Shown here one piece after another: positions 6,240 through 15,757 of a stretch of 64,000 nt of DNA (the first letter of the stretch is position 1; every line of letters begins with the position of its first letter). A program made the translations under genes and the position numbers. This DNA comes from a virus (taxonomy: Duplodnaviria > Caudoviricetes), in the IMG/VR virus record IMGVR_UViG_3300020567_000066, positions 7,121 to 71,120 of that record. One strand, written 5' to 3'. The notes under the pieces were generated by a model that saw nothing but the letters and a program-made list of their open reading frames with translations, made no database searches and was not told the origin of the DNA.

Positions 6240-6293
6240 CAGGAAAATTCCATTTTCATCATTTTTTCATATTTCCCCTCCCCCGCTGAACAG

Positions 6294-6986
6294 CTAGACA
6301 TCGGTGAAAATAACCGTGCTCTCATACTTGTACACCAAGTCAAATAGCTCCCCATAAGCTCCTAAATCAACCCTCTGCCGCCAAAATAGCACAGCCCTAT
6401 GAACCGGCAACTCCGCCCCCACAGCATGACGTACCCTAACCTTGACACACCCTCCCACCCTATCGTAAAGATACCGCTCAATACCTCCCCAAAAGCCAAC
6501 AAAGCCGCTCCCCTCAACCCTCAGTAAACCACCTACCGGCTTCAACCCCACCTCCTCACCGTCCACTACCCTGCCCTCGTCATAATACTCCACCCTGTCC
6601 AATAACTTCCGCCACACCAACACCCTGCCGTCATAAAGCGTATAATCAGGGATAACCTGAAAGCCTAGCCGCGGACTCCTACACTTCGTCAACTCCAGGC
6701 CCAAACAGTATAAGTCGATCTCGTTCCCCCTCCTAAACCGACAAGCTCTCATAACCGGACCAGTATCACTACGTAAATTGACCCCAAACACCGGAAACGA
6801 CCCGAATGCGGTCATGTACCCCTTGCTCCTATCCGAAAACGGCGGGATAGGCGGCCCCTTATACTTGGTCGAATAAACAAACGTCCAAAAACGATCCGGT
6901 ACCGCCCTCTCCAATAAACCCACCACCTCAAACGGCACCCCTCCAGCAACTCCCTCCGCCTCCCTCACCACCAAGAAACTGTTCAT
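6294..6986 (-). CDS. hypothetical protein (GC-rich island)
   Basis: 230-aa ORF, SD GGAGG, about 55% GC with many CG dinucleotides. Confidence 0.65.
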   Translation of the reverse strand: MNSFLVVREAEGVAGGVPFEVVGLLERAVPDRFWTFVYSTKYKGPPIPPFSDRSKGYMTAFGSFPVFGVNLRSDTGPVMRACRFRRGNEIDLYCLGLELTKCRSPRLGFQVIPDYTLYDGRVLVWRKLLDRVEYYDEGRVVDGEEVGLKPVGGLLRVEGSGFVGFWGGIERYLYDRVGGCVKVRVRHAVGAELPVHRAVLFWRQRVDLGAYGELFDLVYKYESTVIFTDV

Positions 6987-7152: not shown

Positions 7153-7926
7153 TTATCGTAAACCAAATACGACTTCGTGCACACCAGCCGGAACGGTTCC
7201 CACAACCTCACCGCTCTCATTCCCTATACGGATTGTCGTAGGATACGGGCTGTTGAGCAAAACGTATCTCATTTTACCATTACCAAGCGGTCGCCATTGA
7301 ATAAACTGCATGTAGTCGTTGACAAGGCAGTAAATGTTCCTCGCCTTCACCCATCTAGGTCGCCGCTTTGGGCTGTTCCAAGAGTTCATTGCCAACTCGT
7401 CAAACTCGCCAACCTTTATAATCCCAATGTCGCCGTCGCTTCCAATACGTTCGTAGTCAACAGAATAGGATCGTTGGTAGGTAATCTCCATGTCCGCACC
7501 ATAGGACCCACCCTCAGCATGCTTCACAAAAAATGCGCTGCGAAACTTGCCGCCGTTCTCATTCCATGCGATGAACCCTGTCCCAAATTGGTCAGCAAGC
7601 TTGCATAGCTCTCCATAGCTGAACCCCGGCTCTCCGCTCTTGCTTTCATACATCGCAACGAGCCGCACAAGACCGGTACCGTACAGGCTCAAGGCTCCCC
7701 TGCCAGAAATCAGAATGGTATCCTTACCGGATAGGAAGTGGGCCTTGGGATAATCGATTACCGTCATAGGCACATGCTCAAAGTCATAGCGCGTCCAGTA
7801 ATGCTCGTAGTACAAGCCATTTACCGTTATGGCTCTGTAGTAGCAGTAATAAGGGCCGCTCCCTCCCACGATCACAGCCGGTTTCCAGGTTGGCAGCTTG
7901 TAGTTTACTGTCAGAACGTTACCCAT
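7153..7926 (-). CDS. hypothetical protein (GC-rich island)
   Basis: 257-aa ORF, SD AGGAG; stop lies 2 bp before the tRNA-Ile. Confidence 0.65.
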   Translation of the reverse strand: MGNVLTVNYKLPTWKPAVIVGGSGPYYCYYRAITVNGLYYEHYWTRYDFEHVPMTVIDYPKAHFLSGKDTILISGRGALSLYGTGLVRLVAMYESKSGEPGFSYGELCKLADQFGTGFIAWNENGGKFRSAFFVKHAEGGSYGADMEITYQRSYSVDYERIGSDGDIGIIKVGEFDELAMNSWNSPKRRPRWVKARNIYCLVNDYMQFIQWRPLGNGKMRYVLLNSPYPTTIRIGNESGEVVGTVPAGVHEVVFGLR

Positions 7927-9905: not shown

Positions 9906-10490
9906 TCAAACCATTCCCTTGATTATAGAGTCAATGTAAAAGACTCCCCTTTCATTATCTTTTGGTGAAGGAAAAAGACACATAAATGCAGACTCATTCT
10001 TACAAAGATCATAAGACTTTAGCTTTCCAAAAGTAGAGCAAAATGCATTGATTCCTGTCTCTATTGGCAAATAGATGTCATAAATATCCCCCTTTATGAT
10101 TACATCATCCAATTGTGTTGGCACAATAAACCCTATAAATGGCCTAAAGTAATCATTTAGGTCAATTGTTGTCTTATAGATGAAGACAAGTTGCTTCACA
10201 AAGACAATCTCCCCATACTCCCTCTGATCATCAGAAGTCAGTACAGCAAATGGTAGACGAATCTTGTTTGTATTCTGCAAATATTCCATAAGAGTCATAT
10301 TCTCTTTATACTCTTTATCCTGTCTCATGTAGATTTCCTTGAAAAGGATCATAGTGTTATCTGGTCTAAACTCAACAGGGAAGACACAAAGAGAGACAGA
10401 ATTACCTTTGATTGGCAATCCCTTTCTGTTGAAGTAATCAACAATACCAACCTCTTTCTCAACACTATCCAATACCTTGTGTTTATTCAT
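9906..10490 (-). CDS. hypothetical protein
   Basis: 194-aa ORF coupled to the primase-helicase by a 4-bp overlap. Confidence 0.65.
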   Translation of the reverse strand: MNKHKVLDSVEKEVGIVDYFNRKGLPIKGNSVSLCVFPVEFRPDNTMILFKEIYMRQDKEYKENMTLMEYLQNTNKIRLPFAVLTSDDQREYGEIVFVKQLVFIYKTTIDLNDYFRPFIGFIVPTQLDDVIIKGDIYDIYLPIETGINAFCSTFGKLKSYDLCKNESAFMCLFPSPKDNERGVFYIDSIIKGMV

Positions 10491-12196
10491 ATTTCTTCTA
10501 CCTCCTCAGATTCATGAATAAACTGTTCTATCTGCTCATCAGAAATAACATTGTCTGATTCTACAAGTTCTTCACCTATAGAATCAGTAATGTACATATC
10601 ATAAGTGTCAAATAAGAATATCTTATTGTCTGAAGGATAATTTGTTTTTATTACAGAAAGATAAGATTGATTCTCTTCATTCTTGTCTACTCTCAAAACT
10701 ACTCTTGATATACCTGTAAAACCAATACTTCCTAATCCCTGTTGAACTTGATTACCATAACTACTGCCATTCCCATTACCATTCCCATTCCCCTTAGTCT
10801 TTCTCAAGTGTCTAACAACAATTGTGGTCATACCCCTACTTCTACACAAACCAACAAAGAATCCAAGTATCTTTCTGATTTCAACATCTGAATACATTAT
10901 ATTAGAGTCTCTCAAGTAAGATGAGATTGGATCAATAATTACAACACGTACATCATGTCTTTCAATCACTCCTTTTATCTTGTTTATATCATTAGGAAAT
11001 ACTGGAAAGTCATTGTAATACAAAAACTTATTAGGATCAGCTTTCATCTGCTTGATTCTGGTCTTTATGGAGGAGACTGTATCCTCATGAGAGATGATCA
11101 ATACTTTTCCATTATCATACCCAGTAACACCAAGACAATTGTCTAGAGAACATATAAACTTATTTCCAGAAACAAAAGCATAAGACAAGGCTAAGGAAAT
11201 GAAACTCTTTCCACAACCAGGATTTCCTTCAATTAATATCAACTCATTCCTTGGTATCATATTTTCTACAAGCCATATATTACCATCTAGTTCCTTGAAA
11301 TCAGAAATACTCAATACTTCATCTTTGTATAACCAACTGAAGAAGGATTCTAGTGAAACAGAAATATTATTGTCATAAATATGAACAAGAAGATCATCAA
11401 TCTTTTCCTTTTGTATTCCAGTTTTCTTAACCTTCTCCCAGTCAAAGTAATAAATATTCTTTATCTCTGTATAATTCACCAATTCTTTGAGTTCTGTTAA
11501 CACATCAACATCAGAGTCGTAGACTAGAAAGACAATATCTTCTGGTTTGAATAAATTACTCTTATAGCAACTTATTACATCCTTTTCAAGAGTCAATTTA
11601 GATTGACTACCAATAACATTACCAATAATATTCATTCTATCAAACAAAATAGATGTAACAATAGACTTTAAATATCCTTCAATGAAATAAAAAACATTAC
11701 TACCATCACTTCTTACTAATGATGGTAAAGCTGGAGAAAGATTATAATACCTTCCATTTGGACTATCTATTAGTCTCAACTGATAATGATTTGAACCATC
11801 TTGTGAATTAATGGGAATGATAAGACAGTAAGACTGTTGATTATTCTTATCAAATATTCCTGGTTTTATACCATACTTCTTAGCTTCACTCTCTGTTATT
11901 CCCCTTCTAGATAACTCATTCAAGTGTTGAGAGTGAAAGACATAAGCTAATGTTAATGTACCTTTATCATAATTCTTTTCCTTATTCATCCATTTCCTCC
12001 TATCAGGAAAACTAATATCTTCTCCTACCAAATGAGAAATCTTCTCCTCAATCACCTCCTTGTATTCTAATACTTCTGACATAGAACACCCAGCAAAACA
12101 TTTACATTTGACAATCTTCCCATCAGAAACACCAACAGACAAAGAAGGATGAACATCATGGTGAGCAGGACATCTAATGGTGTAATACCTGATCAT
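10487..12196 (-). CDS. primase-helicase: Zn-binding domain, TOPRIM and RepA/AAA_25-type helicase
   Basis: CPAHHDVHPSLSV..CKCFAGC; IEGYLKS and VYDSD; Walker A EGNPGCGKS; Walker B VVIIDPIS; VRHLRK. Confidence 0.85.
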   Translation of the reverse strand: MIRYYTIRCPAHHDVHPSLSVGVSDGKIVKCKCFAGCSMSEVLEYKEVIEEKISHLVGEDISFPDRRKWMNKEKNYDKGTLTLAYVFHSQHLNELSRRGITESEAKKYGIKPGIFDKNNQQSYCLIIPINSQDGSNHYQLRLIDSPNGRYYNLSPALPSLVRSDGSNVFYFIEGYLKSIVTSILFDRMNIIGNVIGSQSKLTLEKDVISCYKSNLFKPEDIVFLVYDSDVDVLTELKELVNYTEIKNIYYFDWEKVKKTGIQKEKIDDLLVHIYDNNISVSLESFFSWLYKDEVLSISDFKELDGNIWLVENMIPRNELILIEGNPGCGKSFISLALSYAFVSGNKFICSLDNCLGVTGYDNGKVLIISHEDTVSSIKTRIKQMKADPNKFLYYNDFPVFPNDINKIKGVIERHDVRVVIIDPISSYLRDSNIMYSDVEIRKILGFFVGLCRSRGMTTIVVRHLRKTKGNGNGNGNGSSYGNQVQQGLGSIGFTGISRVVLRVDKNEENQSYLSVIKTNYPSDNKIFLFDTYDMYITDSIGEELVESDNVISDEQIEQFIHESEEVEEI

Positions 12197-12291
12197 ATAT
12201 ACTCACCACCAGGTTAGGCAGTAATGCTGCCATATTAACCCCTTTCCCAGCAAAAAGGATAACAGAAAAATGGAAATTACCTCTTCCAATT

Positions 12292-12325
12292 CCCCATTCC
12301 CAATTCCCCCATCACCCAATAACCC
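12292..12325 (-). other. G-quadruplex motif on the minus strand
   Basis: Five C-tracts of 3 or more on the plus strand, i.e. GGG-TTATT-GGG-TGAT-GGGGG-AATT-GGG-AAT-GGGG on the minus strand. Confidence 0.55.
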
Positions 12326-12340
12326 AGGATACCCATAATT

Positions 12341-12420
12341 TTTGATTATTTCGCTTATAATCGATTTTCCTACCAAAAGTATATCATTACCCTCCCCAAC
12401 CCAAAATAATCGATTATACG
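12341..12420. repeat. left paired-arm element TATAATCGATT-41 bp-AATCGATTATA
   Basis: Arms at 12356-12366 and 12408-12418, preceded by TTTGATTATTT; second copy at 14321-14403. Confidence 0.8.
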
Positions 12421-12507
12421 CAATCCTATGAGGAAATAAAGGCATTCTCATGGGATTGAGGAAGGAAGAGTGCACCATTAACCATTCGCCATTCGCTGCT
12501 TTCCACC

Positions 12508-12556
12508 GCTCGCTGCTCGCTGCTCACCGCTCACTGCTCACTGCTCGCTGCTCGCC
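12508..12556. repeat. tandem heptamer GCTC(G/A)C(T/C), seven copies
   Basis: gctcgct gctcgct gctcacc gctcact gctcact gctcgct gctcgcc. Confidence 0.85.
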
Positions 12557-12659
12557 ATCAACCATCTCAATTCCCCATTTCACCAGAAAAATAGAAATCT
12601 TGTTAGATTTTACCCCTTTCAGGGGTTAATATAGGGTGAGAGAGAAGGGAAGTAGAAGG

Positions 12660-14280
12660 TAAGAGAGTAATTAATGGGTTAATTAACATAGAATTAATTT
12701 CACTGAATTAATTACATTGAATTAATTCACCTAATTAATCATACACTATTAAGTGTGTTAATAACTTAATTGTATGTGATTAAGTCAATGTAATTAAATG
12801 AAATATTATTCACCATAATTAAAGTCACTGTAATTAATGTAGTGTAAATGTAATGTAATATTATCATATGGTGTTAATACACTAATATACAGTGTAATGT
12901 AATTGAATTGTTAATGTATGGGAAAAAGTATATGCTTATTCTATACTAGTGTATGATATAGTTCATTTAATTGGGTTAATTACATTGACTTTAATTCATA
13001 TGATTTAATTTCACCTAATGAAGTTTTAATTCAATGTATATGAGATATATTCTCTAATCTAGTGAAATATACTCTTAATAGACTTATTCTATTTGGTGAA
13101 TAATATTCACATTAATTTGCACTAACATTAAGAGTATTCTAATATATTATTTATACTGTACACTTTAAGTCTATGTACTATTAACATAGTGTTAATATTG
13201 TGTTAATATTATGTGAGGAAAAGAATATATTCTCTTTACATTAGGTGAATTAATCTAATGTAATTGAAAAGAAATATATTTCTTCTATTCAATTAAATTC
13301 AATTGATATTAATTCATATGATTCTAATGTCAATGTAATTAATTGCACCATAATATGGTGTTAACACACTATATATTCTAGTGTAATGTAATTAAACTAA
13401 TTTATGGTGAGAGAAGATATACTCTTAATTACATTGACTTAATTTATGTGATTTAATTCACCTAGTTTAATTCACCTAATTGAATAGAATTAACACTATT
13501 CTTTCACCCACAATATTAACCCAATTAATAGAAGATATATTGCACTCTAATTAAGTGTTCTATTCAATGTAATTAATTCAATTAGATGAATATCATATAC
13601 ATTAGGTGATTAATACACTTAATAGTCTATTCACATTAATTTCATGTAATTAATTCACCAACTATATGATTCACCTAATAGAGAGTATATTACACTTACA
13701 TTAGATGTATTAATTCACCATAATTAAGTGTATTAATCATATGAAATAAAATAATGTTATACTCCTAAAGTATATGTTAACACTCAATTAAATAATCTAG
13801 TGTATTACATTAAGTGTATGAGAGAAGAATATGATTAACACTATTACTACTCACCTAGTGTTAATAGACTAATGTCTTCTCACATTAATCTCTTCTCATT
13901 AATCTTCTCCCATTAATTTCACCTAATAGAGTATATTAGATTAATCTAGTGTATAGACTATACTAAGTGTATTAGTCTATTAACCCCTAATTAGGGTGAT
14001 AATATTCACCTAATGAATTAACACCTAGTGTAATTAAGGTGCATTAACACTTAGTGTAATTAACACTTAATTACAGTGAAATTAATAGAGTATTAAACTA
14101 AGTGTATTAATCTACTAGGTGAATTAATCTACTAGAGTATATAATACACTTAATTATGGTGCAATTTAATTACATTGAAGAAGATATATACTCTAAAGTA
14201 TATGAAAGAACATATACTCTTAATCATATGAAAAGAATATATATTCCTAAAGTATATGAAAAGTATATGAATAATACAAC
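12660..14280. repeat. AT-rich mosaic of dispersed short repeats and palindromes
   Basis: TTCACCTAAT 6 forward + 1 reverse; TAATTACATTGA 4 forward + 3 reverse; no CG seen; sampled 60-bp lines 15-22% GC. Confidence 0.8.
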
Positions 14281-14320
14281 ATTCCTTGGAAACATTAGAT
14301 TCAGTTGTTACCCTCTATTT

Positions 14321-14403
14321 TTTGATTATTTGCTCTATAATCGATTTTGTGGTCTTGGGAGTATCTTTCATCATTTTGGATAGAGATAATCGATTATAAG
14401 CGA
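14321..14403. repeat. right paired-arm element TATAATCGATT-41 bp-AATCGATTATA
   Basis: Arms at 14336-14346 and 14388-14398, same spacing as the left element, offset 1980 bp. Confidence 0.8.
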
Positions 14404-14461
14404 TTTTAGAAGGAAATAAGGGTGTTATTGGGTGATGAGTGGTGAAGGGTGAGTGGTTATT

Positions 14462-14489
14462 GGGGAGAAGGGTGAGTGGGGAATTGGGG
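14462..14489 (+). other. G-quadruplex motif on the plus strand
   Basis: GGGG-AGAA-GGG-TGAGT-GGGG-AATT-GGGG. Confidence 0.55.
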
Positions 14490-14643
14490 AGTGGTGAGTG
14501 GGCAGTAGTGATTAGCTGTTAATATGCCCTTCTTCTCCTCTTGGTCATAAAAATCTTCCAAAATTCTGTTATCCAATCTTTTCCCCAGGTGTTTAATAAT
14601 GCGACCATAGAATAGTTATGGCAATTACTCACTCGAAAGGAGA

Positions 14644-15240
14644 ATGATCATGCCTTCTGTTTACAAAATCCCAAGGAAGAACAATAATCAAAGTTCTTCT
14701 ACTACTCAGGAGAATAATTCTCCTAAGCAATCTAATGATCAATCTAAGAGAAAGTTTTATCCAAAGAAATATCAGAGTAATAGACAAGAGAATAATAGTG
14801 TCAGAAACTCTATTGTTCTTCTAGGAACATATAAAGTATCTTCTGATGGTAATGTTTATATCTCAAAGAATGGGAAAGGATATATAGTTCTTCTCATTTA
14901 TGGGAAGTATAATAATAGAATAAACATTAGTTATTTCTTTAATCAGAAACAATTAGATAAGATTTTCTATAACATCAGGAATAATTGGAAAATAAATCTT
15001 GATGAAGTAGAAGGTAGTAATGATTTAGAGAAACTTAAGAATTATGTGAAAAGTAAAATGTCTATTGATATTAGTAGTAATAGTGAAGAAGAAATACTCT
15101 TAAGATCTTTATCTTCTCTTCTTACTATTCCAAGATATTGTGATATAATGATCAAGGAAGATAATAAAGGAAAATTCTTATACTTTTGTCATATCAAGGA
15201 AAAGAAATCTTTTTCCTTCAATAAGGGTAATAAGAAGTAA
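14644..15240 (+). CDS. hypothetical protein, paralog of 15260-15757; possibly ssDNA-binding (DUF669-like)
   Basis: N/Q/S/K-rich N-terminus, then DGNVYISKNGKGYIVLLIYGKYN; SD AAAGGAG. Confidence 0.45.
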   Translation: MIMPSVYKIPRKNNNQSSSTTQENNSPKQSNDQSKRKFYPKKYQSNRQENNSVRNSIVLLGTYKVSSDGNVYISKNGKGYIVLLIYGKYNNRINISYFFNQKQLDKIFYNIRNNWKINLDEVEGSNDLEKLKNYVKSKMSIDISSNSEEEILLRSLSSLLTIPRYCDIMIKEDNKGKFLYFCHIKEKKSFSFNKGNKK

Positions 15241-15259
15241 TTTATTAGGAGAATAAACA

Positions 15260-15757
15260 ATGGAAAATGAAAAATACAATAAAAAGAATTGGTTACATAG
15301 AGAAAGATTAGATGAAGAAGATACTCTTTATGCTGGAAAAGCAAAAATATATTGTGATGGAAACATATATAAGTCTAATCATGGAGTAAAGTATTTAAGA
15401 CTATCAATTGAAGGGAATTACAATAAGAAGTATAAGATAAACTATTATTTCCATAATTCTTCTTCTCAAGTGAAGAATATACTAGACAATGCAAGTAAAC
15501 TCTGGTTTAAAGATGTTGACAATAAAAGCAATTTCAATGTCAATGATCTAGTTGGTATAGTAAAGAGAGAAAATAATGATTTAGATATTTCTGATCCAAA
15601 GAGTGATAAGATTGAAGATATTGCTAATTGTTTAGCAGATGTTCTTTCTGTAATTCTTTCTAAACCTAAAGTAGCTCAAATTATTATTACAAGGAAACAA
15701 GATATTTATAAAGTCTATTTCTGTAAGGTGAGGAAAGATAGGAAAAGAAATAAGTAG
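15260..15757 (+). CDS. hypothetical protein, paralog of 14644-15240
   Basis: DGNIYKSNHGVKYLRLSIEGNYN...VYFC aligns by eye with the upstream gene. Confidence 0.55.
   Translation: MENEKYNKKNWLHRERLDEEDTLYAGKAKIYCDGNIYKSNHGVKYLRLSIEGNYNKKYKINYYFHNSSSQVKNILDNASKLWFKDVDNKSNFNVNDLVGIVKRENNDLDISDPKSDKIEDIANCLADVLSVILSKPKVAQIIITRKQDIYKVYFCKVRKDRKRNK

Follow-up and report, generated by a model that had tools for sequence, protein, structure and literature searches.

What is the role of a long stretch without genes that lies among the replication genes of an otherwise compact phage genome? The question is raised by a 64,000-nucleotide stretch of DNA from a tailed phage (positions 7121-71120 of the 71,120-bp record IMGVR_UViG_3300020567_000066), here called the window, to which all coordinates below refer. 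Between 12197 and 14643 it contains a gap of 2447 nucleotides (nt), the largest of the genome; the next largest is 342 nt, and the rest of the genome is almost wholly covered by tightly packed open reading frames (ORFs). An initial annotation of this DNA had called the locus gene-free, and the gap indeed holds no ORF of at least 100 amino acids (aa). The small ORFs that can be drawn in it run through repeats and shift in length or frame between strains that are 99% identical, and the gap is without a credible gene. It is also, as annotated, a divergent strand switch, with the primase-helicase gene (10487-12196) leading leftward and a replication and recombination operon leading rightward from 14644. 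The best explanation is that the locus is a replication origin combined with an early-control hub, a reading to which we give a confidence a little short of even. The evidence for it is circumstantial: the locus is placed centrally within the replication module, no other DNA of the genome is less stable, and an iteron-like motif is confined to it. That the gene-free stretch is an origin and early control region is most likely, although unproven.

The locus was compared with independent assemblies from other studies, these being a 43-kb contig in X7 and the assemblies L009, L072 and L073, which come from three Logan runs. They span it colinearly at 98-99% identity, and it is therefore neither an artefact of assembly nor an inversion, both of which had been listed as possibilities.

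An easily melted field of repeated motifs

The core of the locus was correctly annotated as an A/T-rich mosaic, with a G+C content of about 24% against 34% for the genome. By nearest-neighbour energies its duplex stability is the lowest of the genome, and three of the four least stable 500-nt windows fall within it, more than three standard deviations from the mean. Its most characteristic element is a 14-mer of the type ATTAGGTGAATTAA. A position weight matrix refined from this word finds 35 non-overlapping sites in the core at >=8 bits, 19 on the plus strand and 16 on the minus strand; at >=12 bits, 25 of the 26 hits in the genome fall in the core, where 0.3 would be expected in composition-matched random sequence. 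The matrix was trained on the core itself, which makes these counts circular. Exact 10-mers, which are independent of the matrix, recur 7-9 times in the core and 0-1 times elsewhere: ATGTAATTAA is found nine times in the core and GGTGAATTAA seven times, and neither is found outside it. The 14-mer is absent from the other promoter regions of the genome.

The remaining vocabulary of the core consists of short tandem runs with periods of 14, 17 and 26, and of near-palindromes centred on TATAT (GARNATATAYTC; five in the core, three elsewhere). The 14-mers form no significant blocks of orientation (hand-done runs test, z about -1.5), and neither AA/TT nor GTG shows helical phasing in the core. Single strands of the core fold somewhat better than shuffled sequences (mean z -1.4 to -1.8), as is to be expected where copies of the motif are opposed.

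The core is also saturated with TTAA. Outside the locus no palindromic 4-mer is avoided as strongly as this word, which reaches 0.48 of its Markov expectation there. In genes it occurs 188 times, where shuffling of synonymous codons gives 450 +/- 13 (z = -20), and no other tested word comes near this. The core alone has 72 copies, or 44 per kb compared to 2.9 per kb elsewhere, a 15-fold difference, and AATTAA/TTAATT is found 50 times in the core and 39 times in the remaining 69 kb. DnaE led to two distant relatives, L010 and L011 (37% and 34% identical), which have TerL, YqaJ and a protease in common with this phage as well. They have no TTAA in 15.9 kb and two copies in 9.7 kb, respectively, and both lack GATC, for which 39-113 copies are expected. 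In this phage, which encodes two D12-class, Dam-type methylases, GATC is common at normal counts, yet it is absent from the locus. The GATC pattern fits the gain of a methylase that relaxed avoidance of the site. A simple reading for TTAA is that restriction directed at this word acts on the lineage, with this phage gaining partial protection from one of its adenine methyltransferases; avoidance would then be decaying, and a functional array rich in TTAA could be tolerated.

Flanking modules and neighbouring genes

The features of the locus and the genes on either side of it are collected in Table 1.

Table 1. Positions of the features in and around the gene-free locus, in order along the window (G4, G-quadruplex; TRF, Tandem Repeats Finder).
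Feature	Position	Strand	Basis or remark
Primase-helicase gene, 569 aa, first of the leftward operon	10487-12196	-	Pfam AAA_25 E=2.4e-22; PHROG 239 DNA primase/helicase E=6e-19; PHROG 6088 primase E=2e-4
G-rich heptamer-like tract (C-rich on the + strand), with G4 motif at 12292-12317	12286-12325	-	TRF period 7, G4 census, alignment
GTTATTGGGTGATG, listed as outward of the left G-rich tract	12310-12323	-	Alignment of outward-facing units
Left module: TTTTGATTATTT, then O_L1 (12351-12372, TCGCTTATAATCGATT...), 49 bp on O_L2 (12400-12423), then GGAAATAAAGG	12335-12445		Direct repeat of the right module
Heptamer microsatellite, CCATTCG / GCTCRCT units	12480-12556	+	TRF; down to a few units in other strains
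Short G+C hairpin ACCCCT TTC AGGGGT at the left edge of the core	12612-12626		Read from the sequence; kept in L009
A/T-rich repeat mosaic (core), about 24% GC	12640-14290		About 35 ATTAGGTGAATTAA-type 14-mers in both orientations, tandem runs, near-palindromes
Indel point, at which other strains have a 518-bp extra segment bounded by the duplicated word ACCCTCTAT	14309-14318		L009, X7, X17, L072, L073
Right module: TTTTTGATTATTT, then O_R1 (14331-14354), 49 bp on O_R2 (14380-14403, ...ATAATCGATTATAAGCGA), then GGAAATAAGGG	14315-14425		Identical in L073, one change in L072
GTTATTGGGTGATG, then G-rich heptamer/23-mer repeats with G4 at 14462-14489; leader of the rightward operon	14424-14511	+	TRF, G4 census, alignment
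Two orphan-family paralogues (198 aa and 165 aa) that open the rightward operon	14644-15240, 15260-15757	+	BLASTP E=5e-11, 29% identity

The locus had been described as mirror-symmetric, with a pair of arms on each side. The inverted pairs on which this rested are exact (12351-12366 with 14388-14403, and 12311-12322 with 14425-14436), and the units facing outward are indeed mirrored. The flanks are, however, also direct repeats of about 110 nt, 1980 bp apart, which run from TTTTGATTATTT to GGAAATAARGG (81% identity between left and right over 37 nt), and there is no single mirror plane inside the core, where the inverted pairs have many different centres. The arms themselves are real repeated sites, and prove to be four copies of one near-palindrome with an ATCGAT centre (ATAATCGATT type), at 12360, 12409, 14340 and 14389, two in each direct-repeat module and 49 bp apart within it. 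The idealised site is TCGCTTATAAT-CG-ATTATAAGCGA; every real copy retains the core of the site and one good half, and O_L2 contains the 12-bp perfect palindrome ATAATCGATTAT. The exact inverted 16-mer arises because the core of the site is palindromic. For the same reason the left outer site, read on the minus strand, also matches the inner site on the right, and each of these two is followed outward by GTTATTGGGTGATG and by G-rich heptamer repeats toward the first gene of its operon. The outward units form a mirrored pair, yet the whole modules point one way.

The word AATCGATT occurs five times in the window, four of these being in the two modules, despite a five-fold depletion of CpG throughout the genome. 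The palindromic sites overlap TATAAT/TATAAG elements that resemble a -10 box. A perfect TATAAT at 12356-12361 faces the core and lacks a consensus -35 at the proper spacing. A scan for sigma-70 consensus promoters gave no enrichment over shuffles and no hit at the modules; nor was the locus enriched over shuffles in a scan for terminators, in which the hairpin at the left edge of the core did not look terminator-like. A Fur/PerR-type box was considered for the half-sites TTATAAT / ATTATAA, and was rejected since that box has the form 7-1-7 and the spacer here is 2 nt.

Arrays of period 7 are confined to the locus within this genome. The heptamer array that had been noted is confirmed by TRF, but is not conserved among strains that are 98-99% identical. 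In the same way, the two G4 motifs that had been noted are present and are the only canonical ones in the 71-kb genome, each lying on the strand that is the sense strand of the operon leading outward from its flank. The motif on the right is lost in most strains, being destroyed by deletion of a 24-nt repeat in X7, X17, L072 and L073. Since the heptamer tracts vary in this way, the G4 motifs are read as by-products of G-rich repeats; these tracts are hypervariable microsatellites in the leaders and not conserved elements.

A 23-nt word, TTCATCAWTTTTTCATATTT, is shared by window positions 6252-6274 and by L009 at about 150-130 (minus strand), and in each case is followed by heptamer-type repeats, which are C-rich at one place and G-rich at the other. 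Many contigs of other organisms in X1/X2 (two sequencing runs that look like one data set filed twice) align to the GCTCRCT array in 12286-14511, with a summed depth of about 840. The same 25-nt heptamer array is present in genomes of Pyrinomonadaceae, Chloroflexia, cyanobacteria and others. Heptamer microsatellites are common in the community and may be host-like. A call of the host from the GCTCACT-type array, based on a scan of a genome collection, was dropped because the matches span all of these groups.

In the primase-helicase a Cys/His motif lies in the N-terminal part, the helicase domain is of the RecA type (AAA_25) and the C-terminal tail is acidic. The assignment as a helicase is firm; the putative primase part comes from the PHROG 6088 match together with the Cys/His motif, which was spotted by eye; a sequence search of PDB gave no significant match. 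Neighbours to the right include a YqaJ exonuclease, a Dam-type methylase and a Pol III alpha-like polymerase. The two paralogues that open the rightward operon found only themselves among 1.8 billion representatives. The AlphaFold2 model of the first is poor, with a predicted local distance difference test score (pLDDT) of 53, too low for a structure search, and the atlas leads for the pair (weak OB-fold/DUF669) are below the level at which they could be counted (all <0.9 / TM <=0.5). A Pfam survey of 65 ORFs matched 29 families, and among the 25 listed (the four weakest matches being left out) there is no integrase, invertase, ParA or ParB. An Rfam scan of the locus returned no family. No RNA data set is listed among the sequencing runs that carry the sequence; X17, whose origin from RNA is no more than a guess, extends over coding and non-coding stretches without distinction.

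Strains, relatives and genome context

Strains with an overall difference of 1.7% have kept the modules, and have not kept the repeats around them. Positions 12496-12579 are replaced by 9 nt in L009, X7 and X17, and the repeats on the right have lost 23/24-nt units and gained a 7-nt unit in other strains. Between the core and the right module, five other assemblies have a 518-bp segment that is not in this genome (L009:70-589, minus strand). It holds a G+C-richer stretch of about 230 nt whose folding, on either strand, is stronger than that of shuffled sequences (z = -3.5), and it may be a small RNA; an Rfam scan of the segment gave no match, and a 71-aa ORF inside it is frameshifted in L072. 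Among the contigs of the sequencing runs, none is listed with a deletion joint between the two modules. In X1/X2, where depth is available as one figure per contig, the contig over the core (12633-14318) has a word depth of 9.8 compared to 32-34 for the flanking contigs, possibly through A/T bias or heterogeneity of the population.

The locus was searched for in more distant genomes by several routes. Its DNA found nothing in phage and plasmid collections, and searches of IMG/VR and JGI metagenomes anchored on the primase-helicase, DnaE and TerL proteins gave no usable locus. A scan of IMG/VR for two adjacent 14-mer cores returned 25 unrelated contigs with no cluster of motifs and no shared proteins. 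L010 and L011, the two distant relatives, are rearranged and fragmentary, and the primase-helicase region is not part of them.

The record is estimated by CheckV to be 99% complete, and no terminal repeat was found in its 71,120 bp. It encodes a terminase large subunit, a Mu-type portal, the DnaE-like polymerase, the primase-helicase and the YqaJ exonuclease, as well as a ribonucleotide reductase, ThyX, a dCTP deaminase, several DNA methyltransferases, an ECF-type sigma factor and two tRNAs. Besides the sigma factor, an RNA polymerase of the phage's own was looked for among these genes and not seen. The closest cultured phages are only about 25% identical in DnaE or TerL. Near-identical sequence is present in runs from many studies, chiefly of hot-spring and microbial-mat metagenomes. 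A 6-kb stretch is present at >=75% of sampled words in runs labelled hot spring, microbial mat, freshwater, landfill and marine, and also in two organism assemblies. This spread is very wide for a near-clonal phage, and cross-contamination among the runs is possible. CpG is extremely depleted throughout the genome (432 observed, 2147 expected), and what is left gathers in the ORFs at 6294-6986 and 7153-7926 (50-53% GC), in the tRNAs and in the gene-free locus. L010 and L011 have 47-49% GC and near-normal CpG, which implies that the composition of this phage has been strongly shifted.

Origin, control region or TTAA island

By analogy, the locus can be likened to known origins in that it brings together a field of repeats, easily melted DNA and replication genes, without having either the classical iteron layout or that of phage T7. 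The primary origin of T7 consists of the tandem promoters phi1.1A/1.1B followed by an A/T-rich segment, and its primase-helicase is gp4. Both phages have an A/T-rich non-coding segment beside promoter-like elements, with two similar upstream modules, and both have a replicative helicase with an acidic tail, which in this phage would likewise be fused to a primase-type zinc motif. They differ in that the A/T segment here is 1650 bp of repeated 14-mers, in that an ECF-type sigma factor but no phage RNA polymerase was found, and in that the polymerase is DnaE-like and not of family A. Iteron-type origins (lambda ori with O, P1 oriR with RepA, P4 ori-crr with alpha) likewise place short repeats in one non-coding region beside easily melted DNA and replication genes. 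Classical iterons are present in 3-10 copies of 17-22 bp, in one direction and in phase. Here the adjacent A/T-rich unwinding element is present, as judged by nearest-neighbour energy, but the regular same-direction repeats are not: there are about 35 copies of 14 bp in both orientations (19 plus, 16 minus) and with irregular spacing, and no cognate initiator was recognised in the flanking ORFs. Origins of the lactococcal c2/sk1 type take up a few hundred bp of a non-coding region between divergent early and late genes. Like this locus, they lie at a divergent strand switch in non-coding DNA rich in repeats and in A/T; there is no relationship of sequence or protein. [quoted passage not shown] An origin dependent on the DnaA of the host is not suggested by the sequence, there being no DnaA box (TTATCCACA, <=1 mismatch) in the locus as against 36 in the genome, although the box consensus may not be that of the host.

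If the locus is an origin and control hub, one or more DNA-binding proteins would coat the field of 14-mers, candidates being the primase-helicase itself or products of the flanking genes such as the two paralogues at 14644-15757. The resulting nucleoprotein complex would open the A/T-rich DNA, perhaps aided by transcription entering from the left module, and so allow the T7 gp4-like primase-helicase and the DnaE-type polymerase to start. The four palindromic ATAATCGATT sites would be operators for a dimeric regulator, gating the two outward operons.

Several observations weigh against an origin. There is no direct evidence that replication initiates at the locus, no initiator family (Rep/O/DnaA-like) was recognised in the flanking ORFs, and no relative carrying the locus was found in the DNA, protein-anchored or motif searches. 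The spacings of the 14-mers are irregular (12 to 177 nt) and their orientation is mixed, unlike phased iterons, and the core is about 27 times as long as the A/T cluster of the T7 origin, which has about 61 bp (PMC12839067). Between L009 and the window there are 12 differences in 1650 nt of core (0.73%), while the neighbouring genes have five synonymous and eight non-synonymous changes (synonymous divergence about 0.86%, non-synonymous about 0.4%). The core therefore diverges at about the synonymous rate, and purifying selection is not demonstrable at the depth of L009; nor are strain differences depleted in the motif sites (3/14 as against about 4 expected, by hand count). Cumulative GC skew, which had been suggested as a check, does have its minimum at 12620. 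This is because the strand switch is there, so that the minimum is uninformative as to an origin: skew on the sense strand is about 0.24 in the leftward early genes, about 0.19 in the rightward early genes and about 0.07-0.10 in structural genes on either strand, and hence follows the class of gene and not its side or strand, with a replication-linked component of about 0.015. The origin proposed in the initial annotation is kept, as an origin and control hub, as the best single reading, on circumstantial evidence, with its mirror framing and any role of G4 weakened by the direct repeats and by the variation among strains.

The alternative that must be taken most seriously, although we consider it unlikely, is a purely transcriptional control region, in which the palindromes and TATAAT/TATAAG elements would be an early promoter and operator switch for the two divergent operons. 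The A/T field would then be an upstream platform for an activator, nucleoid protein or silencer, or else a long untranslated leader, and replication would begin elsewhere or by recombination, which the YqaJ function could support independently of an origin. Such a switch would account for the similarity of the two modules, each with its palindromic sites spaced by 49 bp, and for the matching outward units (site, GTTATTGGGTGATG, G-rich repeats) upstream of the first genes of both operons, and a phage with its own ECF-type sigma factor evidently runs a transcription programme. It is harder to reconcile with the sigma-70 scan, which was no richer than shuffles and empty at the modules, or with the absence of the 14-mer from other promoter regions, and 1.65 kb with about 35 sites far exceeds what a switch needs. 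Another reading is an array that sequesters protein or acts as a scaffold: as a landing pad of high capacity it might titrate a host factor off the A/T-rich genome, such as a minor-groove nucleoid or silencing protein or a TTAA-directed enzyme, or might be gated by methylation of TTAA. The avoidance of TTAA in genes, its near absence from two relatives and its 15-fold density in the core all point in this direction, as do the several adenine methyltransferases encoded. We nevertheless regard a decoy as distinctly unlikely, since a cut within it would still break the genome, no binding factor was found, and we know of no precedent for a cis-acting DNA decoy in a phage. The TTAA may moreover be part of a functional origin motif that is tolerated through methylation by the phage.

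The possibility that the locus is non-functional, fast-evolving filler, a recombination-prone junction at which short duplications, inversions and microsatellites have gathered, is improbable to us. In its favour, every heptamer array and the 11/26-nt repeats change in copy number between strains 98-99% identical, and a 518-bp indel also occurs between them; the core diverges at about the synonymous rate; and no similar sequence can be present in the 25 kb seen of the TTAA-free relatives. However, filler would be out of place in a genome that is otherwise tightly packed, its motif vocabulary would not be expected to be so highly non-random, and the core is colinear without large deletions in all assemblies from several studies. 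Repeat-rich non-coding DNA can also serve for binding of the small terminase, but a packaging (pac/cos) or terminus region, proposed in the initial annotation together with a partition site, is very improbable. The terminase large subunit and Mu-type portal genes are 15-20 kb away, and the 43-kb contig runs through the locus and probably beyond the left end of the record, which suggests that the ends of the contig are arbitrary and the genome circular or permuted. Nothing favours either proposal: for a ParABS-type centromere, ParA and ParB are missing from the listed Pfam families, and the palindrome ATAATCGATTAT is unlike the parS consensus. An invertible segment or assembly artefact is scarcely credible, in spite of the exact inverted 16-mers and 12-mers that flank the core. 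All independent contigs are colinear and in one orientation, no strand-changing joints are reported, neither an invertase nor an integrase is among the listed families, and the same flanks are direct repeats as well.

TTAA could also have a part of its own at this hub. It is unlikely, but conceivable, that in a lineage which purges the word almost completely the core is a TTAA island, its roughly 70 TTAA-containing sites in 1.65 kb forming a functional array that is read through TTAA. This could take the form of a methylation-gated origin, or of a target or sink for a TTAA-directed enzyme of host or phage that triggers or protects replication. Clusters of methylation sites at origins are familiar from the GATC clusters of E. 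coli oriC and P1 oriR. There as here a short palindromic word is concentrated in the origin, or candidate origin, and adenine methyltransferases are encoded; the difference is that the word here is TTAA, which is avoided elsewhere in the genome, and that GATC is absent from the locus. A methylation-gated origin of this kind would be analogous to control by GATC and SeqA, built on TTAA instead.

The locus is real, and unusual both for its size and for its composition; the TTAA island and the scale are what is new here. In hardly any uncultivated phage have the origin and the early switches been mapped, and this locus is a concrete and bounded candidate that supplies defined motifs, namely the 14-mer, the 22-bp palindrome and TTAA. 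Avoidance of TTAA throughout the genome, set against a core saturated with it, is an unusual and quantifiable signal that could link the pressure of restriction and methylation to the design of origins.

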